Positions 5,648 through 46,606 are shown, counted from the stretch's first letter. The stretch is DNA of 64,000 nt from Candidatus Latescibacterota bacterium (GCA_965242865.1 CBDETK010000013.1:384001-448000); one strand, 5' to 3'. Numbers and translations are program-made. The notes: a model not told the origin generated them from the sequence alone.

Positions 5648-5938
5648 TCAAGCGCAGCAGTAGTTCCCCCCGCACCTTGTATTGCAGTTCGAGTCCAGCC
5701 AACAGTCCTGGCACTTATACGACCTTGCCCCGTTCGAGGCCTCGTCGCAACCTGCGCTGTACCCGAAACTCCTTGTCCACCTTCTTTCGTCGCAATCGCG
5801 ATTATCGGCAGCCGCTTCCTTGGCCCCGAGCAGGATGGTGATCCCCGTCAGGACGCTGATGACCCAACCGAGGGCCAAACCCTGCCGAGCCGGCGCCAAC
5901 CCGCTCGACGACGCGAAAAACTCCCGCAATTTCTGCAT
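5648..5938 (-). CDS. Secreted 8-Cys peptide precursor 1 (44-aa conserved signal/leader + 52-aa variable core)
   Basis: AGGAG RBS; leader nearly identical in four copies; hydrophobic stretch ending in A-x-A; 8 Cys in the core. Confidence 0.88.
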   Translation of the reverse strand: MQKLREFFASSSGLAPARQGLALGWVISVLTGITILLGAKEAAADNRDCDERRWTRSFGYSAGCDEASNGARSYKCQDCWLDSNCNTRCGGNYCCA

Positions 5939-6077
5939 GATTCTCGTCTCCTACGTTGCCCAGTACGCCGGCGGCCCGATACCGCTACGGCACTGGAAGT
6001 GAGGGTTGAAAAGCAGCCGATACGAGTTCGCATCCCCTCCTTTCTTTTTAATCGGCCTTGCTTCTACGGATTATATG

Positions 6078-6094
6078 AGCAAATTGCGTGCCAA
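6078..6094 (-). promoter_or_regulatory. Sigma-54 (-24/-12) promoter, copy 1
   Basis: TTGGCACGCAATTTGCT matches TGGCAC-N5-TTGCW with GG-N10-GC spacing. Confidence 0.88.
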
Positions 6095-6133
6095 AAAGCA
6101 GGGCATGCACAAAAAAATCCTTTAGGATTGCCC

Positions 6134-6146
6134 TAAAGGATTGAAA
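6134..6146 (-). promoter_or_regulatory. IHF-like site between enhancer and promoter; equivalent sites in the other three modules
   Basis: TTTCAATCCTTTA versus consensus WATCAANNNNTTR (1 mismatch), preceded by an A/T tract. Confidence 0.5.
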
Positions 6147-6211
6147 ATATGAGACTTAAAATAATAGACGCGGCTTCTTACGAGCGGCGGCCTCAGCCCG
6201 TGGCGCACGGC

Positions 6212-6289
6212 TTTACACGATTTTCCGTGGATTTTACACGATTTTCCGTGGATTTTACACGATTTTCCGTGGATTTATACGACTTTCCC
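6212..6289. repeat. 21-bp tandem repeat x3 plus a degenerate fourth; putative sigma-54 upstream activator sites, copy 1
   Basis: Unit TTTACACGATTTTCCGTGGAT contains the dyad CACG-N6-CGTG; lies ~120-195 bp upstream of the -24 box. Confidence 0.8.
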
Positions 6290-6343
6290 TTTGGGCCATC
6301 GCGCCGCCAAGATAGGCGATCAAGGGCTGGAGTACGTCCCGCT

Positions 6344-9300
6344 TTACTTGCTGGGTCGGCGCAACCCGTATTTCTGTATGCGGTAACGCAGCTTCTCCGG
6401 GCTCATGCCCAATAGTTTGGCCGCGCCCCGATCGCCATAGATCACCCAGTTGGTCGCATGGAGGGCCGCCACAAGCCGCTGCTTTTCATCATCGCCTTCG
6501 GCCAGCGCTGGCACTTCGTCCCCAGCCTCGGTTTGTCGTGCAGGCGGCGCGAGCGGCTTCCTTGCATCCGCGTCGCCGCCGGCTAGTTGCTCATCCGGCG
6601 GCAACGCCAAATCCTCTACTCGCAACACCCCGTCCTCGCACAGCAAGACCCCTCGGTGGAGCCGATGCGCCAACTCCCGGATGTTCCCCGGCCACGAGTG
6701 CGTCTGCAAGTGCTCGATCACCCCCTCGGCGATCGTCGGCATCGGCTGATTTATCTGGTCGGCAAACCACGCCACAAAATTCACGACCAAATCCGGTATA
6801 TCCTCGGGCCGCTTCCGCAGCGGTAGAACCTCTACCGTGAAGTTGTCCAGCCGATAAAACAGGTCTTGGCGGAACGTACCCGCCTGTACGGCCTGTTTCA
6901 GGTCGCGGTTGGTCGCGGCCACGACTCGCACATCCATGGGGACAGGCCGCTCCCCACCGACGCGGGTCAAGCTCTTCTGCTCTAAGACGTGCAGCAGCAC
7001 CTGCTGGGAGTTTAACGGCAAATCGCCGATCTCGTCCAAAAACAGGGTGCCGCGATGGGCCAGTTCAAAGCGGCCGCGTTGGCGAGTATTGGCGCCGGTA
7101 AAGGACCCTTTCTCGTGGCCGAACAACTCGCTCTCGATTAGGTTGGCGGGGATCGCTGCGCAATTGACTTGGATGAAGGGACGGTCGCGGCGGGGGCTGA
7201 GGTCGTGGACGCTCTGCGCCAGCAAGCTCTTGCCGGTGCCAGTCTCGCCCAGCACCAGCACGGTCATATTGGTCCCAGCGACCCGCTCAATCTGTCGCCT
7301 TATCGTTTGCATGTGCCGAGAGCGGCTCGGCACGACCGAGTTGGCAGACAGCAGGGTCTTTTCGAGGATGCGGGTGTGTTCGACTTGGGGGTCGGGCAGG
7401 ACGTGAACGGCCAAACTGACCACCTCGGACGACAGGCCATCCCGGTCCATGGCCTCCACCTCAAAGCAGTAGTCGCCCACCGGCAAAGTGTGATAGACCA
7501 CCGCATCGGCGGCCGTGAACGCGCTCCACTCTTTGGCCGGATCATGGCCTACCAAGCGATGGCGATAGCACAACTGCCGCGCCCCGCTGCGGAAACTAAT
7601 GCCTTGGAAATGAATGCGGATTTCGGGGATGTCCTCTGAGTAGGACACGGCTTCGGGCATAGTAAAAAGGCGACCGGCCTGCACCTCGCGGATCACCAAG
7701 CGCGGCGGCGTGTCCCCGGGCTGATAGGCCACCAACCCAGCCCGCGTCCCAAACCACAGCCGCCCCTGACGGTCGCACAATACGGCCTCGACGATGTTGC
7801 CCAGCACAGACGACCCCAAGCGGATGTTGCGGAACGTCTCGCCATCATAGCAGAGTACGCCCCCACCACTCGTCCCCAGCCAAACGCGCCCCGCCCGGTC
7901 GGCCGTCAGCCCCAAGATGCCATTGGCCATCAGCCCACTATCCTCCGTGGTAAAGTGGCGCACCTGACCCGCCGAGCGGTCGGCAATGAAAAGCCCCTTG
8001 GCCGTGCCCACCCACAAGACGTCTTGGTGTTCCCACAACACATTGACATAGACGATGGTCTCGGACTCGGCCATCTCCACCGGGCCAAACTGCTCGTCCT
8101 TGTACCAGTACAACGCCGGCACTCGACCGAAGAACCCAATCCAGAACACGCCGTTTTGGTCTTGCAGCAGGGCGCGGCACTCCTCGCCGCTCCACTCCTT
8201 AAAGGGGGTGAAGCGGCCAGCCTCGATCCAGCCGAAGTGGCCCTGGAACGTACCGACCCAGATGCGCCCTTGCCCATCTTCGCACAGTCCGGTAATCGCG
8301 TCGCCGTCGGTCTCGGCCGCCACGGCGATCGCCTGCGGCGTTTGCCCGGCCCACTGGTACACTTGGCCCTGTTCGCCCCCGCTCCAGACCTGCCCCTGTC
8401 CATCCACCATCAGCGCCGACACCGAGTCATCCCTAGTGAGCGGCCGGATGCGGCCTTCTTCCATACAGGCCATGCCGCCTATCGTGCCGATCCAGACCCG
8501 CCCGTCGCCGTCTTCTCCCAAGTGGCACACTTCGTGGTCGGGCAGGCCATCCGCTTCGGTGTACAGCCGCATGCTGACTGGATCGCAAAAAACCAACCCG
8601 CCGCCCCAAAGCCCAACCCAGATATTGCCCTCGCGATCCTCGTAGGTCAGGCGCGTATTGGAAAAGTCAAAGTCCAACAGGTGGGTTGCAAAGGGATGCC
8701 ACGTTTGCCCATCGTAGCAGACTACCCCCCGACGCGCCAGCCAGAGCCGGCCCTGCTCGTCCACCCGCACGTGCCGCACGCCCTGCTGCACCACTCGCTC
8801 GGCCTGATGCTCCACCTCAAGGCAGGCGAACTGCTCGGTGTGCGGATCGTAGCGGCCGATCAAGGCTTCGCTCCCCTCGTAGTGGAAGGCGATCCACAGA
8901 GAGCCGGACGGGTCTTGGGCAAATTTCCAAGGCCAGCGCACCGCCCGATCGCCCAGCTCCATGCGTCGGCCATCCAAACTGAGGACGCCTCGGTCCCACG
9001 TCGCCAGCCAAGTGGTGCCGGCCGCGTCTGTGACCCAATCGTACACCCGCCCCAACGGTTGGCCGTCAATGTGGGTTATGCTCCGGGTGCAGCGGCCTTG
9101 GGCAAACCACGCCACGCCCGCGCCGGTCAGCACCAACACCGACCCATCCGGCTGGGCTTGCAGCCCCACGATCTCATTGGACGGCAAGCCGTGCTCGGTG
9201 GTATGCAGCTCAAAGCCGCGCCCGTCGTACGCGGCCAACCCGCCGCCCAACGTGCCGAACAGCAGCCGGTCGTTGTCGTCCTCGGCAATGGCCATGACCG

Positions 9301-9496
9301 TCAGGTTGGGCAGGCCATCGGCGAGGGCAAACGTATCGAACCGAGCGCTGTCGAACCGGCTGACGCCGCCGTCGGCCGTGGCAACCCAGAGGAACCCTTG
9401 GCGGTCTTGGTAGAGGTCTTCAATGTGCATCCCGCAAAGCCCATCAAAGACTGTGTAGTGATACCCCTGCACGTGCTCAAAGGATAGGGCGCTCAT
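6344..9496 (-). CDS. Sigma-54-dependent activator (bEBP) with N-terminal Reg_prop beta-propellers and Y_Y_Y-type domain, AAA+ domain and Fis-type HTH
   Basis: Repeats such as DGLP...I.ED..G.LW.GT.GG; Walker A GETGTGKS; [15 protein letters not shown]; LFLDEIG; FRQDLFYRL; WPGNIREL; C-terminal [11 protein letters not shown]. Confidence 0.93.
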
Positions 9497-9592
9497 CGTC
9501 GGCCTTTCGGCGATTGGGAGGGAGGTCTTTCCCGGAAGTGGGAAGGAGAAGGAACGCCTAAGATACGACAACCGCCGCCCGAAAACTACCCG

Positions 9593-10930
9593 TCAGTCGG
9601 CCGCGACCAATTGCTGGGCCAAGGATCCTTCTCGCGTCAGGGCGTACACCACCACATTCACCCCCAAATTATAGGCCGACATTTCATCGACGCCGGAATG
9701 AAAAAACGGAGTGTTGCTTATGTTGTTCCGCGCCCCCTCATCCCGGGTCCGCTCGGCGGTTCCCGCCCAAAAATCCGCGTATCCGCGCATCGAATACACC
9801 CCGACCAACTGCTCGCCGACCACAATGCCCTCCAAATAATCCGGGGTGAGCGGGGGGGATTCGCCGCCGGTGGTAAAGTGCATATCGCGCATTCCGCGCG
9901 GCAGGCTTTCGACATCGTAGAAGCTGTGGTAGAGCGGGTGCGTGGTCGCTAAGCGGATAAACTGCCAGTCCTTCCACTCTTGATGGCCGACCGCTTGGAA
10001 GCTGGCCCGAATCAGGGAACGCACCGCCGGAATGTCCAAATCGGCGTCGCTGTAATTGGGCCGCAACGGGCGGACAATCTCCGCAAACAGGAAGCCGCCC
10101 GCAGTCAGATAGGCCCCGAGATTGGCCGCTTCCGCCGCGGTAAACTCAAAGGGCGAGTTGGCCGTAAACAGCACAAAGGGCACCTGCGAAAGCTGGGGAT
10201 CGTCGAGCCGAATCGCGTCGCGGACCTCGACGTGAACCTGCGTCGTGGCGACCATTTTATTGGCCAATCCGTGCAGCATCTGTTTTTCGGCTACTTGGCG
10301 CGTCTGAAGAAATAGGCGCGCCGCTGAGTGGGTGTTTTCCTGTTCAGCCCGTTCGATGGACGGGCTATACACACTGGACAAATAGAGAAAGCCTTTGAGC
10401 TCGCGCCGGTCTTGGGGATCCATCACCACCAGCGCCCGGTGCCGGCCGGTGTCCATGGCCTGCACGTCCATCAGCTCTAGGCCCAAGTCGATCTCGTCGG
10501 CCCCCTGCCGCGTCCCTTCTAACGCCCCCGCCCGCAGCTGCGGACCAATGTGCCGAGCCGGGAAGTCTGGCACCGGCAGCACCAGCCGGTCGGGCAGCGA
10601 CGCCATCGGCAACCGGAGCGACGACGACTTGAACATCGGCAGGGGGCGCATGGCCGAGGGCGCTGGTCGCACCGCGGCGACCGGGGCCGCTTGCAGGGCG
10701 GGGCGGCGCACCAACGGACGCTGCCGGGGGCGTTGCCGACGGGTCAGGGTGCGCTGCGGCGGCGGACGCTTGATAAACTCCACCATGATCGGCTGTAGGA
10801 CGGGGAATTGGCGGATCGGCTCGCGGTGCGTGATGCCGAAGATCACCAACAGATGCAAGGCCAGCGACGCCGCCAAGCAGCCTTGCAGCGTTCTGTTTTT
10901 GCACAGCGGAACTTTCCACGGCCGTCTCAT
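9593..10930 (-). CDS. DUF4159-domain protein with N-terminal membrane anchor and Pro/Arg-rich linker
   Basis: SLALHLLV anchor; motifs AEAANLGAYLTAGGFLFAE, HPLYHSFYD, LEGIVVGEQLVGVYS, LGVNVVVYALT. Confidence 0.75.
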   Translation of the reverse strand: MRRPWKVPLCKNRTLQGCLAASLALHLLVIFGITHREPIRQFPVLQPIMVEFIKRPPPQRTLTRRQRPRQRPLVRRPALQAAPVAAVRPAPSAMRPLPMFKSSSLRLPMASLPDRLVLPVPDFPARHIGPQLRAGALEGTRQGADEIDLGLELMDVQAMDTGRHRALVVMDPQDRRELKGFLYLSSVYSPSIERAEQENTHSAARLFLQTRQVAEKQMLHGLANKMVATTQVHVEVRDAIRLDDPQLSQVPFVLFTANSPFEFTAAEAANLGAYLTAGGFLFAEIVRPLRPNYSDADLDIPAVRSLIRASFQAVGHQEWKDWQFIRLATTHPLYHSFYDVESLPRGMRDMHFTTGGESPPLTPDYLEGIVVGEQLVGVYSMRGYADFWAGTAERTRDEGARNNISNTPFFHSGVDEMSAYNLGVNVVVYALTREGSLAQQLVAAD

Positions 10931-11040
10931 CGGCTCCCATCCCTTCGCAACGGATTAAACCGGAGTAAATCCAGTAAATGCTTAGAAGCGTTCTTAACAC
11001 TCATGTTGCTTTTGGCTCGTCTTGCCTGACGCCTCTAGAT

Positions 11041-11067
11041 GTCATTCCCGCGAACGCGGGAATCCAG
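11041..11067. repeat. REP/dRS3-like palindrome GTCATTCCCGCGAACGCGGGAATCCAG
   Basis: ATTCCC-N8-GGGAAT dyad; an inverted relative lies at 38326-38352. Confidence 0.7.
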
Positions 11068-11097
11068 CAAAGGACCAAGCCGAATCACTAGCTCAAC

Positions 11098-13323
11098 TTA
11101 CGGCAGCTTGGTCGTCTTTTTCGCTTCCACCCGTCCGTCCATCTCGACGCGATAGATGTACACGCCCGCGGCCACGTCTTTACCCGCCTCGTCGCGACCA
11201 TCCCATACAAACCGATGGCTGCCCGCCCTCAGCGGCCCCTCCCACACCTGTCGCACCCGACGACCCAACACGTCATGCACCGTCAGCGACACCCCCGCCG
11301 CGTCCGTCGCCAAATCAAGGGGAATCACCACCGCCGGATTGAACGGATTGGGATAGCTGTCGCCCAGCCGATGTTGCACCGGACGCACATCCGCCAGCGT
11401 CTGCACGGCTGTCGCCTGAGCCGCGACCAAATTCTCGAGCACATATACCCCGTCGGCCGTATGCCCCTCCTCCGAACGATGGCTCAACACGACCAAGTCC
11501 AAGTCGCCATCGCCGTCCACATCTCCAGCCAGCACCTCGCTGCCACTGCCGACCAGCCGATGCCGCTCCACCTCCTTCGCCGGATTAAGGCCCCCGCCCC
11601 ACTCAACGAACACCCCAAACCCCGACGCCCGGTCGCCGCCGATGAACACCCAGTCGTCCGCGCCATCGGCATTCAAGTCGCGCACCACCACCGGCGAGCG
11701 TAGCCACAGCCGCTCGTCATACAGCACCGCCGATTCGACCCCTCCGCCGGCGTCCTGTCGCTGCATCACTAGCCCCTTGACGCCTTCGTTTACGAGGCGT
11801 ATGAACGCCGTGAGCAAATCCACCTGCCCATCGCCATCAAAATCGCCCGCTCGGAACACAGGCCCGGCCAGATTGATCTCAAAAGTGCCGAGGTCGGTCT
11901 GTATAACGGGATTCTCCATGGCGAATTCCATAGCGCCCACTCGGAACACAGGCTTATACGTCTCAAACTCGACGAACTCGTCCCCTTGCAGATCGGCCCC
12001 CAAACCAGCCACCAAGCGCGTGTCCCCCCGGCCGGCGATGGGTTCCCACAACACCTCCAGCCGCCCATCGCCGGTAAAGTCGCCGATCTGAGTGGCTACG
12101 TGGTTGTTGGCGACCGCCACCTCAGAGGACGACCACGCGCCGTTCTCTACATCCCAGACCTCTAACGTGCTGCCCGCAAACGTGGTCTTTCCGACAAATA
12201 GCTCGACCGCGCCGTCGCCATCCCAATCGGCCAAGTCCCGCAGAAAGCGATCCGGGATTTCCGCGAGCACCTCGATTTGGAGTTCCGGCCCCACCGACCA
12301 AACCGCGGTCGCTACTTCACTCGTTCTAGAGAGCACGATCTCGTCGTGGCCATCGCCGGTCAAATCGCCGGCCAGCACCGCAAGGCCCACCTTTTCGGGC
12401 AGATCATCCGGGCCGATCTCGGCCGTACTAACAACCTCCTCTAGGCGCACGGTCTTAAAGACCCCCCGGCCGTCGTTGAGGGCCATCACCCAGCCGCTTG
12501 ACGGCGCGCCCCCCTCGTCCCAATAGTCATAGACCGCGAACAGGTCTAAGTCGCCGTCACCTTCCAAGTCCGTCAAGACGCCGTATCCACCGTCGCGGCC
12601 TCCCCCTAAGCCCCGCGTGATCGGATGGAAAACTGGCGGTGCAAAGTGCTTGGCCCCCTCAAAGCGGACATACTCTACGTAAGGAGGGGCTAATTCCCCC
12701 TGTAACAACTCTTCAACCCCGGTCAACTCGATCCAGTCGATCTCAAACACCCCCACCACATCGCTCACCGGCCGGGGGGGCAGAGTTATATCTTCTATCG
12801 AATCCAAGCCAAAACTGAGCCGAATATCCTTTAACAACCCCTCCCATCGGATTTCGTCTTGGCCAATAAGGGAGAACTCCACTTCCTGCCACTCGGTGGT
12901 GTAAACGAAGTTCGGGGGGCCTCCTGAGAGTGCAAACCGGCTCTCGGGGCCGCCAGAATTTGCAAGGTTGTGCTCGTTGGTCCATTGGAGCCTGCAATAC
13001 CCTACCGTAGGACGATGATGAACGGTGCGGAAGCGAACCCGTACCCGGTCAAACAGGCTCGAATCATAGCCGAGGGTAGAAGAAATCACCTCGACACTCG
13101 GCGCAGGATTTGACTGCCTAGCCACGGAGGGCAAGACATCAATCTGCCACACACCATCTTCGACCCCCCCCGGAAACAGGTCCGCTTCAAACGAACCACC
13201 CCATGCGAGCGCTCTTTTGGCAGCCCACCCTTGCGTCGTCCCATCGTCGAACTCCCACCGAATCGCCGCGGCGGGATCGTTCCACAGCGCAACAGCGACG
13301 ACAACGGCCAATAGCAACGTCAT
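11098..13323 (-). CDS. Secreted FG-GAP/VCBS + FlgD-Ig/T9SS-like protein (paralog 3, 'GAKHF' subtype)
   Basis: Start refined to MTLLLAVV; same architecture as paralogs 1-2. Confidence 0.9.
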   Translation of the reverse strand: MTLLLAVVVAVALWNDPAAAIRWEFDDGTTQGWAAKRALAWGGSFEADLFPGGVEDGVWQIDVLPSVARQSNPAPSVEVISSTLGYDSSLFDRVRVRFRTVHHRPTVGYCRLQWTNEHNLANSGGPESRFALSGGPPNFVYTTEWQEVEFSLIGQDEIRWEGLLKDIRLSFGLDSIEDITLPPRPVSDVVGVFEIDWIELTGVEELLQGELAPPYVEYVRFEGAKHFAPPVFHPITRGLGGGRDGGYGVLTDLEGDGDLDLFAVYDYWDEGGAPSSGWVMALNDGRGVFKTVRLEEVVSTAEIGPDDLPEKVGLAVLAGDLTGDGHDEIVLSRTSEVATAVWSVGPELQIEVLAEIPDRFLRDLADWDGDGAVELFVGKTTFAGSTLEVWDVENGAWSSSEVAVANNHVATQIGDFTGDGRLEVLWEPIAGRGDTRLVAGLGADLQGDEFVEFETYKPVFRVGAMEFAMENPVIQTDLGTFEINLAGPVFRAGDFDGDGQVDLLTAFIRLVNEGVKGLVMQRQDAGGGVESAVLYDERLWLRSPVVVRDLNADGADDWVFIGGDRASGFGVFVEWGGGLNPAKEVERHRLVGSGSEVLAGDVDGDGDLDLVVLSHRSEEGHTADGVYVLENLVAAQATAVQTLADVRPVQHRLGDSYPNPFNPAVVIPLDLATDAAGVSLTVHDVLGRRVRQVWEGPLRAGSHRFVWDGRDEAGKDVAAGVYIYRVEMDGRVEAKKTTKLP

Positions 13324-13373
13324 AGTATAATTCCTTTCCAACAGTAGCGTCTCTGGGGAGTTGAGAGGAGAGG

Positions 13374-13410
13374 AGGGGCTGACTTAATCGCTACTATTAA
13401 GCCAGCCCCT
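13374..13410 (-). terminator. Stem-loop downstream of peptide gene 2
   Basis: Minus strand AGGGGCTGGCTTAAT...ATTAAGTCAGCCCCT. Confidence 0.55.
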
Positions 13411-13468
13411 TAGCACCGTAACCTGAGAAGCAGCCCCATAGCCATTTATCAACAACTTAGGTATTATC

Positions 13469-13759
13469 TCAGGGGCAGGAAGTGGAGGAGCACCAGCAAG
13501 CTATTCTAGAATAGCTGCAATCCGGGGCCCTTTTGTGGGTGCAGTACCGGTAGCCCTCGTCCGTATCCCCCTCTGCACAGTTGGCACTCGTACTGCAGGT
13601 GGTCCAAGTGCGAGGGCACTGGCTGTCGGCTTTCGCTTCCTTGGCCCCGAGCAGGACGGTGATCCCCGTCAGGACGCTGATGACCCAACCGAGGGCCAAA
13701 CCCTGCCGAGCCGGTGCCAACCCGCTCGACGACGCGAAAAACTCCCGCAATTTCTGCAT
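13469..13759 (-). CDS. Secreted 8-Cys peptide precursor 2
   Basis: Same leader; core spacing C-x6-C-x5-C-x11-C-x7-C-x6-C-x-C-x4-C. Confidence 0.88.
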   Translation of the reverse strand: MQKLREFFASSSGLAPARQGLALGWVISVLTGITVLLGAKEAKADSQCPRTWTTCSTSANCAEGDTDEGYRYCTHKRAPDCSYSRIACWCSSTSCP

Positions 13760-13898
13760 GATTCTCGTCTCCTACGTTGCCCAGTACGCCGGCGGCCCGA
13801 TACCGCTACGGCACTGGAAGTGAGGGTTGAAAAACAGCCGATATGAGTTCGCGTCCCCTCCTTTCTTTTTAATCGGCCTTGCTTCTACGGATTATATA

Positions 13899-13915
13899 AG
13901 CAAATTGCGTGCCAA
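13899..13915 (-). promoter_or_regulatory. Sigma-54 promoter, copy 2
   Basis: TTGGCACGCAATTTGCT. Confidence 0.88.
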
Positions 13916-14032: not shown

Positions 14033-14111
14033 TTTACACGATTTTCCGTGGATTCTACACGATTTTCCGTGGACTGTACACGATTTTCCGTGGATTCTAC
14101 GCGACTTTCCC
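14033..14111. repeat. 21-bp tandem repeat array (putative UAS), copy 2
   Basis: TACACGATTTTCCGTGGA core x3 plus a degenerate fourth. Confidence 0.8.
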
Positions 14112-16518: not shown

Positions 16519-16556
16519 AGCCTAGCTCCTTGCAACAGGCATAAAAGAAGGTCCGC

Positions 16557-18698: not shown

Positions 18699-18792
18699 AG
18701 CCTAGCTCCTTTGCAATAATTTCAGCCCCAGTCCGGTATAGATGATTTAGGCGGTCTCATGCCGTCTCATCGGCTCGCGTTTCTACCACTTC

Positions 18793-21018
18793 TTACGGCA
18801 GCTTGGTCGTCTTTTTCGCTTCCACCCGGCCTTCGATTTCGACCCGATAGATGTACACCCCAGCGGCCACGGCCCTACCTTCCTCGTCGCGACCATCCCA
18901 TACCAACCGATGCTGACCCGCCCCCAGCGGCCTGTCCCACACCTGACGCACCCGACGACCTAACACGTCATGTACCGCCAGCGACACTTCCGCCGCGTCC
19001 GTCGCCAAATCAAGGGGAATCACCACCGCCGGATTGAACGGGTTGGGATAGCTGTTGCCGAGCCGGTATTGCGCCGGTTGCGCATCCGCTAGCATCTGCA
19101 CGGCCGTCGCCTGATCCGCGACCAAATTCTCGAGCACATACACCCCGTCGGCCGTATGCCCCTCCTCCGAAAGATGGCTCAACACGACCAAGTCCAGATC
19201 GCCATCGCCGTCCACATCTCCAGCCAGCACTTCGCTGCCATTGCCGACCAACCGATGCCGCTCCACTTCCTTCGCCGGATTAAGGCCCCCGCCCCACTCA
19301 ACGAACACCCCAAAGCCTGACGCCCGGTCGCCGCCGATGAACACCCAATCGTCCGCGCCATCGGCATTCAAGTCGCGCACCACCACCGGCGAGCGCAGCC
19401 ACAGCCGCTCGTCATACAGCACCGCCGATTCGACCCCTCCGCCGACTCCCGGTCGCTGCACCACTAGCCCCTTGACGCCTTCGCTTTGGACCCGTATGAA
19501 CGCCGTGAGCAAGTCCACCTGCCCATCGCCATCAAAATCGCCCACTCGCAAAACAGGGCCTGCCAGATAAACTTCATCAGACTCCGAGTATGATGTATCC
19601 ACCTCAAATTCCACATCGCCTACCTGTAAAACAGGCTTATACGCCTCGAACTCAACCAAATCGCCCCCCTGAAGATCGTTACCCAAACCAGCCACCACCC
19701 GCGGAGCTGCCTGTCCGGCGATGGGTTCCCACAGCACCTCCAGCACCCCATCGCCGGTAAAGTCGCCGATCTGGGAGGCCACATAGTTTTTGGAGACCGC
19801 CACCTCAGAGGACGACCACGCGCCGTTCTCTACATCCCAAACCTCCAACGTGCTGCCCTCAAGCGTCGTCTCTCCGACAAATAACTCAACATCCCCATCG
19901 CCATCCCAATCGGCCAAGTCCCGCAGCCAGCGAGCGGGGATTTCCGCGAGTACCTCGACTTGGAGTTCCGGCCCCACCGACCAAACCGCGGTCGCTAATT
20001 CACTCGTTCTAGAGAGCACGATCTCGTCGTGGCCATCGCCGGTCAAATCGCCGGCCAGCACCGCTAGGAGCACCCCTTCGATCGGCTCATCCGGGCCGGC
20101 CTCCACCGTGCTAACAACCTGCTCGGCGCGCACGGTCTTAAAGGCTCCCCTACCATCATTGAGGGCCATCACCCAGCCCGTTTTGGGGGTTGACTCGCTT
20201 ACTTTATAGTCCCAAACAGCGAACAGGTCTAAGTCGCCGTCTCCCTCCAAGTCCGTCAAGACGCCGACGTGATCTCTATGCGATCTTCCCCCGATGCCCG
20301 GGGTAATCGGATAGAAAACCGGCGGCGCAAAGTGCTTGGCCCCCTCAAAGCGGAAATACTCTACGTAAGGAGGGGCTAGTTCCCCCTGTAAGAGCTCTTC
20401 AACCCCGGTCAACTCGATCCAGTCGATCTCAAACTCTCTAACCACTTCGCTCACGGCCAAGGGAGGCTGAGTTATATCAGGTGCCTGCAAGACAAAACCC
20501 AGCCGAATATCCCGCAGTAGCCCCTCCCACATTTTCTCGCCTTGGCCGACGAGGGCGAACTCCACCTCCTGCCACTCGGTGGTGTAAACGAAGTCCCGTT
20601 GTCCCGGGAGCCTAAACCTGCCTCCGGCATCCCAACTTGGATTTGCCCCTGGATTTGTAAGGTTATACTCGTTCGTCCAAGTCAGCCAAAAAGAGCCTAA
20701 CGTAGGACTGCGATGGACCGTGCGAACCCGGGCTCGGACCCGATCAAAAAGCCCCGAATCGTAGCCTATGGTCGAAGAAACCACTTCGACTTTCGGCGCA
20801 GGATAGGCACTCGCGGGCACGGAGGGCAAGACATCGATCCGCCACACGCCGTCTTCAACCACCCCCGGGAATAAGTAAAACTCACCCGTCCCACCCCACG
20901 CAAGCGCTCTTTTGGCAGCCCACCCTTGCGTCGTCCCATCGTCGAACTCCCACCGAATCGCCGCGGCGGGACCGCTCCACAGCACAATACCGACGACAAC
21001 GGCCAATAGCAGCAGCAT
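18793..21018 (-). CDS. Secreted FG-GAP/VCBS + FlgD-Ig/T9SS-like protein (paralog 6, 'GAKHF' subtype)
   Basis: Same architecture; closest to paralog 3. Confidence 0.9.
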   Translation of the reverse strand: MLLLLAVVVGIVLWSGPAAAIRWEFDDGTTQGWAAKRALAWGGTGEFYLFPGVVEDGVWRIDVLPSVPASAYPAPKVEVVSSTIGYDSGLFDRVRARVRTVHRSPTLGSFWLTWTNEYNLTNPGANPSWDAGGRFRLPGQRDFVYTTEWQEVEFALVGQGEKMWEGLLRDIRLGFVLQAPDITQPPLAVSEVVREFEIDWIELTGVEELLQGELAPPYVEYFRFEGAKHFAPPVFYPITPGIGGRSHRDHVGVLTDLEGDGDLDLFAVWDYKVSESTPKTGWVMALNDGRGAFKTVRAEQVVSTVEAGPDEPIEGVLLAVLAGDLTGDGHDEIVLSRTSELATAVWSVGPELQVEVLAEIPARWLRDLADWDGDGDVELFVGETTLEGSTLEVWDVENGAWSSSEVAVSKNYVASQIGDFTGDGVLEVLWEPIAGQAAPRVVAGLGNDLQGGDLVEFEAYKPVLQVGDVEFEVDTSYSESDEVYLAGPVLRVGDFDGDGQVDLLTAFIRVQSEGVKGLVVQRPGVGGGVESAVLYDERLWLRSPVVVRDLNADGADDWVFIGGDRASGFGVFVEWGGGLNPAKEVERHRLVGNGSEVLAGDVDGDGDLDLVVLSHLSEEGHTADGVYVLENLVADQATAVQMLADAQPAQYRLGNSYPNPFNPAVVIPLDLATDAAEVSLAVHDVLGRRVRQVWDRPLGAGQHRLVWDGRDEEGRAVAAGVYIYRVEIEGRVEAKKTTKLP

Positions 21019-21075
21019 AGCCTAGCTCCTTGCAACAGGTAGAATTCCGGCAGATAGCATCTCTGGGAAGTTGAG

Positions 21076-21117
21076 AAGAGGAGCCCGGCTCAATCGTACG
21101 AGCGAGCCGGGCCTCTT
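21076..21117 (-). terminator. Stem-loop downstream of peptide gene 3
   Basis: Minus strand AAGAGGCCCGGCTC...GAGCCGGGCTCCTCTT. Confidence 0.55.
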
Positions 21118-21164
21118 AGCCTGAGAAATGGCATTGTGGCTAGTTCTCGATAGCTAGTGTTGTC

Positions 21165-21443
21165 TCAGGGGCAGGAGGAAACGCAGTCGCAGATTGTATG
21201 AGTCTTTCTGCAATACGAGTCCCAGTAACTGGTGCATTCCCGGTACGGCGTTCTGGAGTTATAGTCCGCGCAGTCGGCGGAGTAGCCACAAGTGGTCTTG
21301 TCTTTGGGGCAAGCACCGGCTTCCTTGGCCCCGAGCAGGATGGTGATCCCCGTGAGAGCACTGATGACCCAACCGAGGGCCAAACCCTGCCGAGCCGGTG
21401 CCAACCCGCTCGACGACGCGAAAAACTCCCTCAAGTTCTGCAT
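21165..21443 (-). CDS. Secreted 8-Cys peptide precursor 3
   Basis: Same leader; core spacing C-x6-C-x5-C-x11-C-x7-C-x6-C-x-C-x3-C. Confidence 0.88.
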   Translation of the reverse strand: MQNLREFFASSSGLAPARQGLALGWVISALTGITILLGAKEAGACPKDKTTCGYSADCADYNSRTPYRECTSYWDSYCRKTHTICDCVSSCP

Positions 21444-21582
21444 GATTCTCGTCTCCTACGTTGCCCAGTACGCCAGCGGCCCGATACCGCGATGGCACTG
21501 GAAGTGAGGGTTGAAAGACAGCCGATACGAGTTCGCGTCCCCTCCTTTCTTTTTAATCGGCCTTGCTTCTACGGATTATATA

Positions 21583-21599
21583 AGCAAATTGCGTGCCAA
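21583..21599 (-). promoter_or_regulatory. Sigma-54 promoter, copy 3
   Basis: TTGGCACGCAATTTGCT. Confidence 0.88.
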
Positions 21600-21716
21600 A
21601 AAGCAGGGCATGCACAAAAAAATCCTTTAGAATTGCCCTAAAGAATTGAAAATATGAGACTTAAAATAATGGAGGAGGCTTCTTATGAGCGGCAGCCTCA
21701 GCCCGTGGCGCAAGGC

Positions 21717-21795
21717 TTTACACGATTTTCCGTGGATTCTACACGATTTTCCGTGGACTGTACACGATTTTCCGTGGATTCTACGCGACTTTCCC
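21717..21795. repeat. 21-bp tandem repeat array (putative UAS), copy 3
   Basis: Same sequence as copy 2. Confidence 0.8.
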
Positions 21796-21897
21796 TTTGG
21801 GCTGTCGCGCCGCCAAGATAGGTGCTCGATGGCTGGAGTACGTAAGTACGCGGCACCTACTTTGATTCCGCCTTTTCTGGTATTCCCACCGCGTCTG

Positions 21898-21949
21898 GGA
21901 TCGAGGGCGTCCCGCCCTTGACGTGACGAGGGCAAGACGCCCTCGATCC
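21898..21949. repeat. REP-like inverted repeat (duplicate)
   Basis: Identical to 14214-14265. Confidence 0.65.
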
Positions 21950-22096
21950 TTAGGAAGGTGGGGGCTGATGTCGTGTAGTAAGGACCGGAAGTAATTCAGT
22001 ATCAGTATAATGGACGGTTAGATGGATGGTTAGGCTGTCTCATGCCGTTTCATCCTCGTTCGCGTCAAATAGCTCATAGCTCAAAAGACGGGCCGT

Positions 22097-24250
22097 TTAC
22101 GGCAGCTTGGTCGTCTTTTTCGCTTCCACCCGGCCTTCGATTTCGACGCGATAGATATACACCCCAGCGGCCACGTCTTTACCCGCCTCGTCGCGCCCAT
22201 CCCATACCAACCGATGGCTGCCCGCCCCCAGCGGCCCCTCCCACACCTGCCGCACCCGCCGACCCAACACGTCATGTACCCGTAGCGACACCGCCATCGC
22301 GTCCGTCGCCAAATCAAGGGGAATCACCACCGCCGGATTGAACGGGTTGGGATAGCTGTCGCCCAGCCGGTACTGCGCCGGCCGCGCATCCAGCGGCGTC
22401 AGCACAGCTGTCGCGGTCGAGGCCAGCGAACTCTTGAGAACATGCACACCGCCCAAGATCGGATCCAATACCACCAAATCCTCATCGCCGTCGCCATCCA
22501 TATCCCCGGACAGCACGTGGGTCGCACTGCCCGTCAGCCGGTGACGCTCCCCGTCTTGGGTCGGCTTGACACTCCCGCCCCACTCGACAAACACCCCAAA
22601 CCCCGACGCACGGTTGCCGCCGATAAACACCCAGTCGTCGATCCCATCGGCGTTGAGATCGCGCATCAGCACCGACGAGCGCAGAAACAGCCGATCATCA
22701 TACAGCACCGCCGATTCTACGCCGCCACCGGCGCTCCTGCTCTGCAAGGCCAAGCCCTTGAGACCTTCAATTTGATCCCTTATGAACCTCGTGAGTAAAT
22801 CCACCTGCCCATCGCCATCAAAATCGCCCACCTCTAACAGATCCTTCCACAACAGCCGGTTCCCTTCGTCGAATTCAAAGGACTCGCCAGTCTGCAACTC
22901 GTCGTCCAAAGGTCCCACAATCCACGTGTGCGACCGCCCGGCGATTGGTCCCCACAACGCATTGAGAACCCCATCGCCGGTAAAGTCGCCAATCCGACTA
23001 ACCACATGACGTTCGGCCACGGCCACCTCCTCGGCGGTCCACCCGCCCTGTTCGACCTCCCAGACCGCTAAAATGCTCCCTTCCAACGAAGACGATCCGA
23101 CAAATAATTCGGCCTTGCCATCGCCGTCCCAATCCGCCACATCCCCAAGCCAGCGATCCTCGATCTGCACGAGCACCTCGACTTGGAGGTCCGCCCCGAT
23201 AGACCACACTTCTACTACCTGCCCAGCATTGCTTACATACAGCGCGATTTCGTCTCGACCATCGCCGGTCAAGTCCGCACCCAGCATCTCTAAGGCGACC
23301 AAGGAGGCGGTCGTCCTGCCCGTTGCCGCATCGGTACTCGACTGCCCTGTGGCCGCTACTTCCTCTATGCGCTTGAGTTCCAAGACCCCGTATCCATCGT
23401 TGAGGGCCATCAGCCAGCCCACTTTATCCCCCGGCTGATTCTTTTGCTTTTGCCGAGCTTCCCAGACAGCAGACAGGTCTAAGTCGCCATCGCCATCCAA
23501 GTCCGTCAAGACGCCGCTGTGATCTCTATAAGACCTTCCCCCGATGCCCGGGGCAATCGGATAGAACACCGGCGGCGCAAAAAGCCCAACTCCATCCAAG
23601 CTAAGGAACTCTACGGGCGGCGGCGGCCGTTCTCCTTGTAATAGCTCTTCCACGCCGGTCAACTCGATCCAGTCGATCTCAAACCACCCAATCACCGCGT
23701 CTTGATCCTCGATGTCCAAGTTAAAACTGAGCTGAATATCTTTTAACAGGCCCTCCCATATCGTCTCGTCTGAACCCGCCAAGAAAAGCTCCACTTCCTG
23801 CCACTCGGTGGTATAGACTACCTCTTGGGGGAAGAAGAGCTTAAACCGGCTTCCAGACGGTGGCTCGGCTGGGTCCCAACCGGACGACAGGGCGTTGTGC
23901 TCGTTGGTCCACTCCATTGAAAACGTACCGATCGTCGGGCGGTCATGGACGGTGCGGAACCGGATGCGGACCCGGTCAAACAGGCTCGAATCGTACCCGA
24001 TAGTCGAAGAAATCACTTCGACACTCTGGCCAGAATAATTGCCTTTGACGACCGCGGGATCGACCGCGATCCGCCACACGCCGCCTTCAACCACCCCGGG
24101 AAACTGGTTAAATTCATACCAACTACCCCATACACCAGCTTCTTTGGCGGACCACCCTTGCGTCGTCCCATCGTCGAACTCCCACCGAATCGCCGCGGCG
24201 GGACCGTTCCATAGCGCAATACCGACGACAACGGCGAATAGCAGCAGCAT
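22097..24250 (-). CDS. Secreted FG-GAP/VCBS + FlgD-Ig/T9SS-like protein (paralog 7, mosaic)
   Basis: Same architecture. Confidence 0.9.
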   Translation of the reverse strand: MLLLFAVVVGIALWNGPAAAIRWEFDDGTTQGWSAKEAGVWGSWYEFNQFPGVVEGGVWRIAVDPAVVKGNYSGQSVEVISSTIGYDSSLFDRVRIRFRTVHDRPTIGTFSMEWTNEHNALSSGWDPAEPPSGSRFKLFFPQEVVYTTEWQEVELFLAGSDETIWEGLLKDIQLSFNLDIEDQDAVIGWFEIDWIELTGVEELLQGERPPPPVEFLSLDGVGLFAPPVFYPIAPGIGGRSYRDHSGVLTDLDGDGDLDLSAVWEARQKQKNQPGDKVGWLMALNDGYGVLELKRIEEVAATGQSSTDAATGRTTASLVALEMLGADLTGDGRDEIALYVSNAGQVVEVWSIGADLQVEVLVQIEDRWLGDVADWDGDGKAELFVGSSSLEGSILAVWEVEQGGWTAEEVAVAERHVVSRIGDFTGDGVLNALWGPIAGRSHTWIVGPLDDELQTGESFEFDEGNRLLWKDLLEVGDFDGDGQVDLLTRFIRDQIEGLKGLALQSRSAGGGVESAVLYDDRLFLRSSVLMRDLNADGIDDWVFIGGNRASGFGVFVEWGGSVKPTQDGERHRLTGSATHVLSGDMDGDGDEDLVVLDPILGGVHVLKSSLASTATAVLTPLDARPAQYRLGDSYPNPFNPAVVIPLDLATDAMAVSLRVHDVLGRRVRQVWEGPLGAGSHRLVWDGRDEAGKDVAAGVYIYRVEIEGRVEAKKTTKLP

Positions 24251-24288
24251 AGCCTATCTCCTTGCAATAGGCGAAAAAGAAGGTCCGC

Positions 24289-26433
24289 TTACGGCAGCTT
24301 GGTCGTCTTTTTCGCTTCCACCTGTCCGTCCATCTCGACGCGATAGATATACACGCCCGCGGCCACCGCCTTACCTGCCTCGTCGCGACCATCCCATACA
24401 AACCGATGGCTACCCGCCCTCAGCGGCCCCTCCCACACCTGCCGCACCCGACGACCCAACACGTCATGCACTCGCAACGACACCACCGCGTCCGTCGCCA
24501 AATCGAGGGGAATCACCACCGCCGGATTGAACGGGTTGGGATAGCTGTCGCCCAGCCGGTATTGCACCGGGTGCGCATCCGCTGGCGTCTGCACGACCGT
24601 CGCGGTCGAAGCCAGCGAACTCTTGAGGACATGCACACCGCCCAAGATCGGATCCAATACCACCAAATCCTCATCGCCATCGCCATCCATATCCCCAGAC
24701 AGCACGTGGGTCGCACTGCCCGTCAGCCGATGCCGCTCCCCTTCTTCGGTCGGCTTGACACTCCCGCCCCATTCGACGAACACCCCAAACCCCGAAGCGC
24801 GGTCTCCGCCGATAAACACCCAGTCGTCGATCCCATCGGCGTTGAGATCGCGCATCAGCACCGGCGAGCGTCGAAACAGCCGATCATCATACAACACCGC
24901 TTCTGCGCCGCCAGTACTCTGGCTCCGCCAGACGAGCCCCTTGCTCCCTTCAAATTCATCGCGTGTGAGCTCGGTGAGTACATCCACCTGTCCATCGCCA
25001 TCAAAATCGCCCACCCCTAACAGCGGCTTCCAGGCCTCATTGCCGACCCCTAACAGCGGCTTCCAAGCCTCGAATTCAAAGATCTCGTTTCGCTGAAACT
25101 CGTCGCCCAAGGCTTCCACACTCCACGTGTTCGCCTGCCCGATCTTCGGTATCCACACCACGTCGAGCACCCCATCGCCGGTAACGTCGCCAACCCGATG
25201 GGACACATGGTGTTGAGCCGAGGCCACCTCCTCGGCCGTCCACACACCTTGTTCCACATCCCAGACCTCTAACGCGGTGCGCCCCTTGACGAATAATTCG
25301 GCCTGACCATCGCCATCCCAATCCGCGGCATCCGTGATCCATCGATCTGCGATCTGCACGAGCACCTTGACTTGGAGGTCCGCCCCGATAGACCACACTT
25401 CGATTACCCTGCCCTCCCCGTCGCTTGCATACAGCGCGATTTCGTCGCGACCATTGCCGGTCAAGTCCGCACCAAGCACCCCTAAGGACACCCCGTAGAT
25501 GGTTATACTTCCGGTTGCCGCGTCGGTACTCGTCCCCCCTGCGGTCGCTACTTCCTCTACGCGCCCCCGTTCCAAGGCCCCGTGCCCGTCATTGAGAGCC
25601 ATCAGCCAGCCCACTTTAGCCCCCATCTTCCCCTTCCCACTTTGACGATACTCCCAGATGGCGAACAGATCTAAATCGCCATCGCCCTCCAAGTCCGTCA
25701 AGATACCCTCCTGCGCTCCTGCAAAGCCGTAGCCGGTCCCAATGCCCGGTGCAATCGGATAGAATATCGGCGGCGCAAAAAGCCCCGCCGCATCCCAGCG
25801 AAGGTACTCTACGGGGGGCGGTGACCGTTCCCCCTGTAGCAACTCTTCCACGCCGGTCAACTCGATCCAATCGATCTCAAACCACTCAACCACATCGGAC
25901 GCCGATTCAACTTCCGAACGATCGAGTGAAAAACTGAGCCGAATATCTTTTAACAGGCCCTCCCATCTCTTCTCGTCGCGACCTGCCAAGACAAGCACCT
26001 CTTCCTGCCACTCGGTGGTATAGACTATATCTTGGGCGAAAATTGTAAACGCGAAATCCCGACCTGACGGCAGGGCGTTGTGCTCACTGGTCCAAGCGAC
26101 CGAAAAATTACCGATTGTAGGGCGGTGATGGACGGTGCGGCAGCGGATGCGAACGTGGTCAAACAGACCCGAATCGTATCCGATGGTCGGCGAAATCAAT
26201 TCGACTGCCGGCTCGGAGTAGAACCCCTTGGTGACGGCCGGATCGACCGCGATCCGCCACACGCTGTCTTCAACCATCCCCGGAAACTGGTGAAATTCAC
26301 GCGAACCACCCCATATAGCAGCTTCTTTGGCAGACCACCCTTGCGTCGTCCCATCGTCGAACTCCCACTTGATCGCCGTGGCGGGATCGTCCCACAGCAC
26401 CACAGCGACGACAACGGCGAATAGCAACATCAT
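24289..26433 (-). CDS. Secreted FG-GAP/VCBS + FlgD-Ig/T9SS-like protein (paralog 8)
   Basis: Same architecture; shares the EAWKPLLGVG duplication with paralog 5. Confidence 0.9.
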   Translation of the reverse strand: MMLLFAVVVAVVLWDDPATAIKWEFDDGTTQGWSAKEAAIWGGSREFHQFPGMVEDSVWRIAVDPAVTKGFYSEPAVELISPTIGYDSGLFDHVRIRCRTVHHRPTIGNFSVAWTSEHNALPSGRDFAFTIFAQDIVYTTEWQEEVLVLAGRDEKRWEGLLKDIRLSFSLDRSEVESASDVVEWFEIDWIELTGVEELLQGERSPPPVEYLRWDAAGLFAPPIFYPIAPGIGTGYGFAGAQEGILTDLEGDGDLDLFAIWEYRQSGKGKMGAKVGWLMALNDGHGALERGRVEEVATAGGTSTDAATGSITIYGVSLGVLGADLTGNGRDEIALYASDGEGRVIEVWSIGADLQVKVLVQIADRWITDAADWDGDGQAELFVKGRTALEVWDVEQGVWTAEEVASAQHHVSHRVGDVTGDGVLDVVWIPKIGQANTWSVEALGDEFQRNEIFEFEAWKPLLGVGNEAWKPLLGVGDFDGDGQVDVLTELTRDEFEGSKGLVWRSQSTGGAEAVLYDDRLFRRSPVLMRDLNADGIDDWVFIGGDRASGFGVFVEWGGSVKPTEEGERHRLTGSATHVLSGDMDGDGDEDLVVLDPILGGVHVLKSSLASTATVVQTPADAHPVQYRLGDSYPNPFNPAVVIPLDLATDAVVSLRVHDVLGRRVRQVWEGPLRAGSHRFVWDGRDEAGKAVAAGVYIYRVEMDGQVEAKKTTKLP

Positions 26434-26501
26434 AGCCTAGCTCCTTTGCAATAATGCAGCACCGGCAGATAGCGTCTTCGGAACGTTGAGAAGCGAGGCG
26501 G

Positions 26502-26534
26502 GAGCTGGCTCAATCGCGACGATTAAGCCAGCTC
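26502..26534 (-). terminator. Stem-loop downstream of peptide gene 4
   Basis: Minus strand GAGCTGGCTTAATCG-tcg-CGATTGAGCCAGCTC, 15-bp stem. Confidence 0.55.
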
Positions 26535-26595
26535 ACTGCACACCTTAGCCTACCTCAGTAACACCCCTACAGCTTTGGTCAGTAGCTGTAGGGGT

Positions 26596-26877
26596 TTAAG
26601 CCGCGCAGTAACAAGGGTATCTCCTAAAGCTGCAGTCAGGGTACTCTCGAACTGGGCAGCAACTGAACGGCTTGTTCGCGTCTTTAGACGCGCAATAAGC
26701 ACTGTACTCGCAGTCTTCATAAGTGCGGTCACTGCACTCGTCGCCTGCCTCGCCTTCCTTGGCCCCGAGCAGGACGGTGATCCCCGTGAGGACGCTGATG
26801 ACCCAGCCCAGTGCCAAACCCTGCCGAGCCGGCACCAACCCGCTCGACGACGCGAAAAACTCCCGCAAGTTCTGCAT
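26596..26877 (-). CDS. Secreted 8-Cys peptide precursor 4
   Basis: Same leader; core spacing C-x7-C-x5-C-x10-CC-x7-C-x6-C-x-C. Confidence 0.88.
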   Translation of the reverse strand: MQNLREFFASSSGLVPARQGLALGWVISVLTGITVLLGAKEGEAGDECSDRTYEDCEYSAYCASKDANKPFSCCPVREYPDCSFRRYPCYCAA

Positions 26878-46604: not shown

Positions 46605-46606
46605 GA

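Follow-up and report, generated by a model that had tools for sequence, protein, structure and literature searches.

The window analysed here is a stretch of 64,000 nucleotides (nt) from a Candidatus Latescibacterota genome (GCA_965242865.1, CBDETK010000013.1:384001-448000; G000:C13:384001-448000 in our numbering), an assembly that is 93.6% complete with 6.8% contamination. Positions without a contig name are counted from the first letter of the window. On its minus strand lie four short open reading frames (ORFs), each coding for a peptide with a 44-residue leader and a cysteine-rich core:

Peptide gene 1: 5648-5938, minus strand; 96 aa; leader codons 5807-5938, core 5651-5806; eight Cys, framework A.
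Peptide gene 2: 13469-13759, minus strand; 96 aa; leader 13628-13759; eight-Cys core, framework B'; AlphaFold model made.
Peptide gene 3: 21165-21443, minus strand; 92 aa; leader 21312-21443; eight-Cys core, framework B'.
Peptide gene 4: 26596-26877, minus strand; 93 aa; leader 26746-26877; eight-Cys core, framework B with a CC pair.

A sequence-only reading of this DNA had reported four peptides with eight Cys each, behind near-identical 44-residue leaders that diverge abruptly at an A-x-A site. Both observations were borne out: the ORFs lie on the minus strand where that reading placed them, 38 of the 44 leader columns are invariant in the four-way peptide alignment, and past Ala44 there are only seven invariant columns, namely five Cys and an S-A pair. 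The residues given ahead of the break (AAA, AKA, AGA and GEA) agree with the translations, as do the Cys spacings described for cores 2 and 3, the CC pair of core 4 and the rearrangement of core 1. The spacing is C-14-C-11-C-2-C-5-C-3-C-4-CC in core 1 (framework A, cores of which were also found in other genomes), C-6-C-5-C-11-C-7-C-6-C-1-C-4/3-C in cores 2 and 3 (framework B', the final gap being 4 in core 2) and C-7-C-5-C-10-CC-7-C-6-C-1-C in core 4 (framework B). The (Y/T)SAxC-x11-C piece singled out earlier is likewise present, with 10 residues to the first Cys of the CC pair in core 4 and 11 to the second. To judge from copies in the genome, in congeners and in database clusters, this four-peptide pattern is not a product of chance.

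Arg-rich ORFs in an alternative frame over the 5' untranslated region (5'UTR) and leader (5848-6033 and 26550-26990, minus strand) were judged spurious from the homologues, because the Cys pattern is kept across these in the peptide frame only. An AGGAGG-like stretch is found just ahead of the ATG at 6033 of one such ORF (minus strand). Diversification of the kind driven by diversity-generating retroelements was rejected by eye, as the core differences consist of indels and changes at all bases, and a lipoprotein reading was rejected for want of L, V or I at position -3 of a lipobox before the first Cys.

As far as profile searches tell, the family reaches well outside the window. Eight genes of the genome have the window-type leader (subfamily 1: the four described, three just upstream of the window and one at 2.27 Mb), and four belong to a sister subfamily (subfamily 2) at 3.15-3.19 Mb, 12 copies altogether. 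With a profile built from the eight copies, the family was detected in 16 of 24 further genomes from its genus and in none of 16 genomes from four other genera of the same class; the only named record that matched is a Candidatus Latescibacterota metagenome-assembled genome. In the protein database 104 clusters match, none of them named and none with a Pfam domain. A leader-only profile (44 residues) searched against 1.84 billion representatives matched 76 proteins, which share the family architecture, distant members included, with the exception of two weak matches of repeat type (P0268, P0279). Fused relatives join two to three core modules in one protein and carry Por_Secre_tail, above cut-off, in all six cases tested. 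The four window peptides themselves matched no family in Pfam or NCBIfam and no type IX secretion system (T9SS) sorting domain (TIGR04183); sequence profile searches of the PDB gave no match and the ESM Atlas no usable one. Literature searches on Latescibacteria with cysteine-rich peptides, or with sponge and FG-GAP, returned nothing on this family, although supplements, which lay outside the search, may list the genes. The four ORFs probably belong to a lineage-restricted, unannotated family of small exported precursors, in which a conserved leader of 44 residues precedes a variable core of 35-65 residues. Sequencing runs labelled as sponge metagenomes contain 0.34-0.58 of the sampled words of this stretch, and because of this the family may bear on the dealings of a sponge symbiont with its host or with competitors.

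Even Cys counts prevail throughout the family. We pooled cores 25-74 residues long with a leader match extending to position 39, taken from the genome, its congeners and metagenomes; of 208 distinct cores 189 have an even and 19 an odd number of Cys. Eight Cys are found in 118 cores, six in 45, ten in 18, four in 7 and none in 1. The constant even count proposed from the four peptides thus stands in so far as even numbers dominate, whereas exactly eight is not a rule of the family. Counted by distinct Cys spacing framework, 95 of 110 are even and 15 odd. Among distinct members cut from genomes the even fraction is 84/91 (short forms of subfamily 1 45/50, subfamily 2 17/18, fused forms 22/23), and among further database cores 86/90. 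These counts cover related sequences and hence are not independent trials; the parity is seen at 4, 6, 8 and 10 Cys.

Judged from natural variants, Cys are also gained, lost or moved in twos. In framework A the step from eight to ten Cys adds a loop Cys and a C-terminal Cys together, while in framework B the step from eight to six removes either C1 and C6 (P0045, P0053) or C2 and C5 (L017). Cores 2 and 3 show a new C-terminal Cys in exchange for the second Cys of the CC pair. From the natural double losses we predict the bonds C1-C6 and C2-C5 for framework B. We infer four disulfides in each window peptide, as the sequence-only reading did; parity and paired changes agree with this, whereas no match to DsbA, DsbB, VKOR or Thioredoxin_4 was found in the genome. 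This lack, at 93.6% completeness and despite hundreds of Cys in exported members, counts against the disulfides, as do about nine apparently intact members with an odd Cys count (about ten of the odd cores are visibly truncated or frameshifted).

A DsbD_TM domain is encoded at C13:3402752-3403378, and thiol-disulfide oxidoreductases of another kind accompany the family in sister islands. In the island at 3.15 Mb the gene for an enhancer-binding protein comes first; after it come, in order, those for an A24 peptidase, a protein with a weak FMN_bind match, a pair of anchored Redoxin/Thioredoxin_2 proteins (one with the motif CSAC, one with CPYC), a subfamily-2 peptide and five FG-GAP proteins. 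The two oxidoreductase genes lie directly 5' of the peptide gene, and the CPYC gene overlaps it by 4 nt. The CPYC protein of this island matches the ResA, StoA and MauD models. A homologue of it is encoded in a subfamily-1 island of genome G005, where its neighbours are an A24 paralogue, a TPR protein, a fusion of glycosyltransferase and transglutaminase, a family 2 glycosyltransferase (GT2), DUF4159 and an enhancer-binding protein. Since DsbA, DsbB and VKOR were not found, oxidation is probably performed by these ResA/TlpA-like proteins, which are candidates for a dedicated oxidase or isomerase. Their scores, far below the equivalog cut-offs, speak against such a role, as does the fact that ResA/TlpA-like proteins are often reductants.

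Alternatively, the Cys might hold a metal, in the manner of a metallothionein or a zinc knuckle. The high Cys content would suit this, as would the missing canonical DsbA/DsbB. Metal clusters, however, need neither strict parity nor paired Cys changes, the cores contain few His and no repeated CxxC pairs, the export leader and the T9SS-tailed relatives put the domain outside the cytoplasm, and thiol-disulfide oxidoreductase genes are adjacent in the sister island. We consider metal binding extremely unlikely.

The island at 3.15 Mb (G000:C13:3150001-3200000) also holds DUF4159 genes, a fusion of a GT1-type glycosyltransferase with a transglutaminase, a GT2 gene, fused Cys-module/T9SS proteins and many FG-GAP/T9SS genes. 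Conserved leaders ahead of variable cores are what would be expected of ribosomally synthesised and post-translationally modified peptides, in which the leader acts as a recognition element and the core is modified, for instance glycosylated as in glycocins. The GT1-transglutaminase-like fusion, the GT2, the thioredoxin-fold proteins and the peptidase of the sister islands would fit as well, these islands presumably resembling glycocin clusters. Several observations argue otherwise. No gene for a radical SAM, lanthipeptide, cyclodehydratase or C39/ABC protein was seen among the scanned ORFs of the window (22 long ORFs, by Pfam, excluding 48396-51959, 61272-62678 and 62697-63941), the window's own island has no glycosyltransferases, the leader is hydrophobic and Sec-like, and the glycosyltransferases may act on FG-GAP proteins or the cell envelope. 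A modified-peptide origin therefore appears to us improbable.

A small stable fold had been proposed from the four sequences, and modelling supports this. AlphaFold2 models of peptides 1 and 2, built with family alignments, show the order strand, short helix, strand, strand in both cores, in framework A and framework B' alike. The local confidence measure pLDDT is 84-90 for the core of peptide 1 and about 80 for that of peptide 2 (71-84 by block). Confidence is low for the leader, which one model draws as a helix over residues 24-45. Both main frameworks are thus predicted to share one compact beta-alpha-beta-beta mini-domain. Foldseek found no match in the PDB at E ≤ 0.001 for either model. 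The cores are mostly acidic (78% of 158 cores, mean net charge -2.5). When the core of peptide 2 (residues 45-96) and residues 21-645 of its FG-GAP neighbour were modelled as a complex, the score was 0.00, which speaks neither for nor against binding.

Leader and core appear to have had different histories. Leader DNA is more alike between different Cys classes of the same genome (identity 0.87) than between different genomes within a class (0.79), and the same holds for the last 90 nt of the 5'UTR (0.80 vs 0.71), while core DNA compared across classes is no more alike than shuffled sequence (0.56). Trees were built from leader and core DNA of 36 members from 10 genomes. For leader DNA, the tree requires 14 changes of genome label (23.7 on average after shuffling, at the least 20) and 13 of class label (16.0 on average after shuffling); for core DNA the figures are 24 for genome (shuffled average 23.7) and 5 for class (shuffled average 15.8), the latter a clustering that is partly circular because the classes were defined from the core Cys pattern, which weakens the contrast. 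As leaders group by genome and cores by class, the comparison indicates that the segment made up of 5'UTR and leader is homogenised within genomes by concerted evolution, presumably through gene conversion. The sharp identity break between leader and core would then arise largely because old, shared core classes are joined to a leader homogenised in each genome.

The ratio of nonsynonymous to synonymous substitution rates (dN/dS) was estimated by pairwise Nei-Gojobori comparison between genomes within a class, with dS near saturation. It amounts to 0.56-0.60 for cores (0.70-1.00 without the conserved Cys), 0.19-0.23 for leaders and 0.37-0.47 for the first 150 codons of the FG-GAP gene. The diversifying selection suggested by the sequence-only reading is not demonstrated by this comparison of leader and core, as the core ratio is never clearly above 1. 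On this measure the core dN/dS shows relaxed constraint, with little held but the Cys; positive selection is not proven. The cores are, as the trees and ratios portray them, old classes common to the species, evolving almost freely except at Cys.

The leader ends as would be expected of a cleaved export signal, and the predicted A-x-A site gains support from the whole family: all 150 leaders have Ala at position -1, and 149 of them have A, T, G, V or I at position -3, the remaining one Asp. The site is kept in distant relatives and in fused forms, and conservation stops exactly at residue 44. T9SS cargo must be freed from the inner membrane; the fused relatives are such cargo, which therefore supports cleavage by signal peptidase I, and the T9SS sorting domain they carry (6/6) argues for an extracytoplasmic Cys module. 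We think it likely that signal peptidase I performs the main release step. Typical class I signals combine a short basic n-region with an h-region of about 7-15 residues. Here the n-region has 20 residues (with K3, R5 and R18) and the h-region 19, both longer than the typical values. The h-region, long for a cleaved Sec signal, counts against such cleavage, as does the leader's fit to most of the definition of a class III signal (below). Further points against the export and maturation scheme as a whole are that the short forms have no T9SS domain and hence no assigned route across the outer membrane, and that the window's own island has neither an A24 nor a thioredoxin gene among the scanned ORFs.

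If the leader were never cut, it would form a permanent transmembrane helix with the Cys domain on the periplasmic face, where it might for instance assist the FG-GAP cargo as its partner or chaperone. The 19-residue h-region is compatible with this, as are the modelled helix over residues 24-45 and the tight coupling of the peptide gene with FG-GAP genes. Such an anchor would explain neither the constant Ala at -1 with its fitting residue at -3 nor the end of conservation at residue 44, and T9SS-tailed fused forms exist. We rate it as quite improbable.

The best-conserved leader stretch over both subfamilies is S-x-S-G-x-x-x-P-x-R-Q-G-L-x-L-G-W at the boundary of the n- and h-regions, of which R-Q-G-L-x-L-G-W is also kept in distant relatives. 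Gly20 is kept in at least 90% of 34 diverse leaders, and all of 150 leaders have the R[QR]G motif; after Gly20 comes a 19-residue hydrophobic tract, with Trp and no Glu at position +5. Class III signals are defined in PMC4471445 by a hydrophilic leader of 6-26 aa ending in Gly and about 21 hydrophobic residues with Glu5.

A24 peptidases are in fact linked to the family. The sole Peptidase_A24 match of the genome (27.1 bits against a cut-off of 26.5 bits) lies in the 3.15 Mb island. Across the genus, in genomes covered by both searches, 17 of 19 full-length A24 matches are within about 4 kb of a family peptide match, and the other two are on contigs without a listed peptide match. The peptidase occurs in 14 of 16 peptide-bearing genomes and in none of eight peptide-less ones, including the single-contig genomes G010 and G011; G001, G005 and G019 each have one A24 gene, located in the island. 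Two A24 paralogue lineages track the two leader types. Two Asp, which we take to be catalytic, are invariant in six of six sequences. With 55 clusters (called 'A24 family peptidase' or 'prepilin peptidase' where named), the A24 family is no broader than that of the peptides. A 41-kb contig, C1, whose membership in the organism is uncertain given the contamination of 6.8%, carries the sole match to the T2SSE ATPase and three canonical pseudopilins (G|[FIV][ST]L[LI]E) at C1:26570-30200, without an A24 gene. That A24 is merely the housekeeping prepilin peptidase for these pseudopilins is weakened by its absence from the peptide-less G010 and G011.

The chief rival to release by signal peptidase I builds on these data. 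The leader would be a class III signal cut by A24 after Gly20 on the cytoplasmic side, and helix 21-39 would be retained, which makes the peptide an anchored or fibre subunit with a variable disulfide-rich head. The 20-residue hydrophilic to neutral part ending in Gly, with the 19 mostly hydrophobic residues that follow, matches the definition in PMC4471445, and both the exceptional conservation around Gly20 and the distribution and location of A24 would be accounted for. What it leaves unexplained is the invariant Ala at -1 with the small residue at -3. Moreover, Glu5 is replaced by Trp, the islands examined showed neither a traffic ATPase nor a platform gene, the fused relatives, whose leader is the same, are T9SS cargo and must exit the inner membrane, and some fused forms have lost the Gly motif and kept A-x-A. 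This pilin-like arrangement is in our estimate unlikely. Keeping signal peptidase I as the main releasing enzyme, we put the chances that A24 additionally cuts the leader after Gly20 at about even.

The peptide genes are accompanied by recurrent regulatory elements and by genes for large surface proteins:

Sigma-54 -24/-12 promoter TGGCACGCAATTTGC: 6079-6093, minus strand; about 155 nt 5' of the ATG of peptide 1; identical copies at 13900-13914, 21584-21598 and 27018-27032.
21-bp tandem repeats (3.6-3.7 copies, Tandem Repeats Finder): 6212-6288, minus strand; each with CACG-N6-CGTG; others at 14035-14110, 21719-21794 and 27154-27229.
GC-rich hairpin: 5556-5590, minus strand; between peptide gene and next gene; others at 13374-13410, 21082-21113 and 26502-26534.
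Sigma-54 enhancer-binding protein: 6344-9571, minus strand; N-terminal Reg_prop/Y_Y_Y beta-propeller sensor, AAA+ domain and HTH_8.
rpoN (sigma-54): 56942-58408, plus strand; sole Sigma54_DBD match of the genome, 57926-58399 (G000:C13:441926-442399).
FG-GAP beta-propeller protein with T9SS type A sorting domain: 3260-5581, minus strand; directly 3' of peptide gene 1; start probably the ATG near 5482.
Second FG-GAP paralogue beyond peptide gene 1: 986-3259, minus strand.
FG-GAP/T9SS protein: 11098-13341, minus strand; 3' of peptide gene 2; at least 637 database clusters.
Three FG-GAP/T9SS paralogues: 18793-21018, 16557-18698 and 14413-16518, minus strand; 3' of peptide gene 3; 18793-21018 by Pfam/NCBIfam, the others by translation.
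Two FG-GAP/T9SS paralogues: 24289-26433 and 22097-24250, minus strand; 3' of peptide gene 4; judged from translations.
DUF4159 membrane protein: 9593-10930, minus strand; recurrent member of family islands.

The promoter has the form TGGCAC-N5-TTGC and matches four times in the window, against 0.02 expected. The relaxed element TGGYAY-N5-TTGC was found within 300 nt upstream (136-183 nt from the ATG) of 28 of the 44 short subfamily-1 genes with enough flank, of 2 of 18 subfamily-2 genes and of none of 20 fused forms. The remaining genes without the element are internal cistrons, such as two copies in this genome straight after an FG-GAP stop codon. Going upstream, the promoter is followed by an AT-rich stretch and the 21-bp repeats, which are putative upstream activating sites for the enhancer-binding protein. 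The peptide genes are thus, to judge from promoter, gene order and the adjacent gene for the enhancer-binding protein, the first cistrons of sigma-54 operons. The hairpins (dG -23 to -28 kcal/mol) show compensatory changes, have a C/T-rich tract behind them and may act as attenuators or RNA stabilisers. The whole window gave no Rfam match at the gathering threshold, so the conserved 5'UTR corresponds to no known RNA family.

After each peptide gene and its hairpin come between one and three genes, whose products of some 700-770 residues have FG-GAP repeats and a T9SS type A domain where tested; both neighbouring FG-GAP proteins that were run on NCBIfam contain the sorting domain. The clusters of 11098-13341 are named 'FG-GAP-like repeat-containing' or 'T9SS type A sorting domain-containing' by their sources. 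Of the 48 short subfamily-1 genes with flank, 43 are followed by an FG-GAP gene with the motif W-x-F-D-D-G-T-T-x-G-W as identified by regular expression, and three more as judged by reading. The T9SS translocon protein SprA is encoded in the genome.

At G000:C13:493762 a promoter and repeat cassette of this kind drives an FG-GAP gene without an intervening peptide gene (region 493584-496000), and a decayed copy of promoter and 5'UTR without a peptide ORF is present at G000:C13:2312881. FG-GAP gene fragments lie 5' of the peptide 4 promoter (26924-27813); among them, ORF 27289-27813 has an internal FG-GAP stretch behind an unrelated N-terminus and looks like a rearrangement scar. A 33-bp tandem duplication within two FG-GAP paralogues (17277-17339 and 25009-25071) yields a repeated 'EAWKPLLGVG'. 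Elsewhere in the window a TPR protein (35075-36598) adjoins an unrelated FG-GAP_3/UnbV_ASPIC protein (36583-38295). A ResIII/DEAD helicase, an HATPase_c_3 protein, a PLD-like protein and two family-less ORFs (43528-48394) could form a defence system, as could a 966-aa AAA_21/SMC_N ATPase (58520-61420).

Put together, these observations suggest the following course. The leader would insert the precursor into the inner membrane via Sec and be cut after the invariant Ala of A-x-A, as by signal peptidase I. The acidic core is predicted to fold outside the cytoplasm as a beta-alpha-beta-beta mini-domain that disulfides would lock, four in each window peptide if parity and paired Cys changes are a guide, with oxidation probably by membrane-anchored ResA/TlpA-like thiol-disulfide oxidoreductases from the sister islands. 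As a whole we hold this explanation to be somewhat better than an even bet; that no RNA run is among the sequencing runs listed for this DNA weighs against it. The peptides most likely serve as variable extracellular binding or defence modules made alongside surface propellers; the operon link to FG-GAP genes, the T9SS-tailed versions, the acidity and the variability point to this role rather than to classic cationic antimicrobials. By analogy with the toxin superfamilies of cone snails one could go further and imagine, in a sponge symbiont, a bacterial library of knotted, mostly acidic peptides, switched by sigma-54, kept uniform in the leader by gene conversion, equipped with an A24 peptidase and oxidases of its own that stand in for DsbA/DsbB, the tail-less peptides riding on FG-GAP T9SS cargo. 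We regard this as a long shot; if true, an A24 GxGD protease would act on a non-pilin substrate, cutting at Gly20 besides signal peptidase I.

The family is unusual in its bacterial origin, sigma-54 control, T9SS partners, genome-homogenised leader and linked A24 peptidase and oxidoreductases. It provides over 200 naturally occurring versions of a scaffold some 50 residues long, built on four or more Cys frameworks, with double-Cys losses that predict part of the disulfide map, and could supply stable peptide scaffolds. It is also a clear case of mosaic evolution, with a homogenised leader and a diverging core, and offers a testable link of an A24 peptidase to a non-pilin substrate and a way in which a candidate phylum might form extracytoplasmic disulfides without DsbA/DsbB.

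Compared with type IV pilins and class III signals, as outlined in PMC4471445, the family is similar in leader length, in Gly with a hydrophobic tract, in an A24 gene at the locus and in a variable Cys-bearing C-terminal domain; it differs in having no Glu5, an A-x-A after the helix and fused relatives that are T9SS cargo, and its examined islands showed neither an assembly ATPase nor a platform gene. The island CPYC protein resembles MauD, ResA and StoA by its model matches and is translationally coupled to a family peptide gene, whereas its scores fall well short of the equivalog cut-offs and it has no counterpart in the window's own island.

Among small secreted bacterial peptides, the cis-defensins share the disulfide-rich character and the signal peptide; the portion of PMC11561630 at hand lists five classes from three phyla and does not mention Latescibacterota. 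None of 158 cores fits the CS-alpha-beta expression CX(2,18)CX(3)CX(2,12)CX(4,17)CXC as given there. The present cores are acidic (mean charge and acidic fraction as above) and their models have no Foldseek match to solved defensins. Plant-defensin topology does resemble the beta-alpha-beta-beta order predicted here. Laterosporulins, defensin-like bacteriocins of Brevibacillus (4ozk, 6lwy, 6lwz), are the sole small disulfide-rich proteins among the weak fold matches of the peptide-2 model (target TM-score 0.51-0.59); they differ in that laterosporulin is leaderless by the title of its PDB entry and in showing no sequence similarity, the PDB profile searches being empty.

The pairing of a conserved signal with a hypervariable disulfide-rich part is already known from families in animal venoms and in mollusc and plant immunity, and in the literature searched no bacterial family of this kind turned up. 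Among the closest parallels are the conotoxin superfamilies and mussel MgCRP-I (PMC4558851, PMC11860864), which are multigene families with a conserved signal or pre-pro region and a mature peptide that is hypervariable and keeps its Cys framework. The joining of a conserved leader to a hypervariable Cys-framework peptide in a multigene family is common to both. In contrast to these, the family described here is bacterial, without introns and without a pro-region, it is driven by sigma-54 in operons with T9SS surface proteins, and it carries several Cys frameworks on one leader that is homogenised in each genome.

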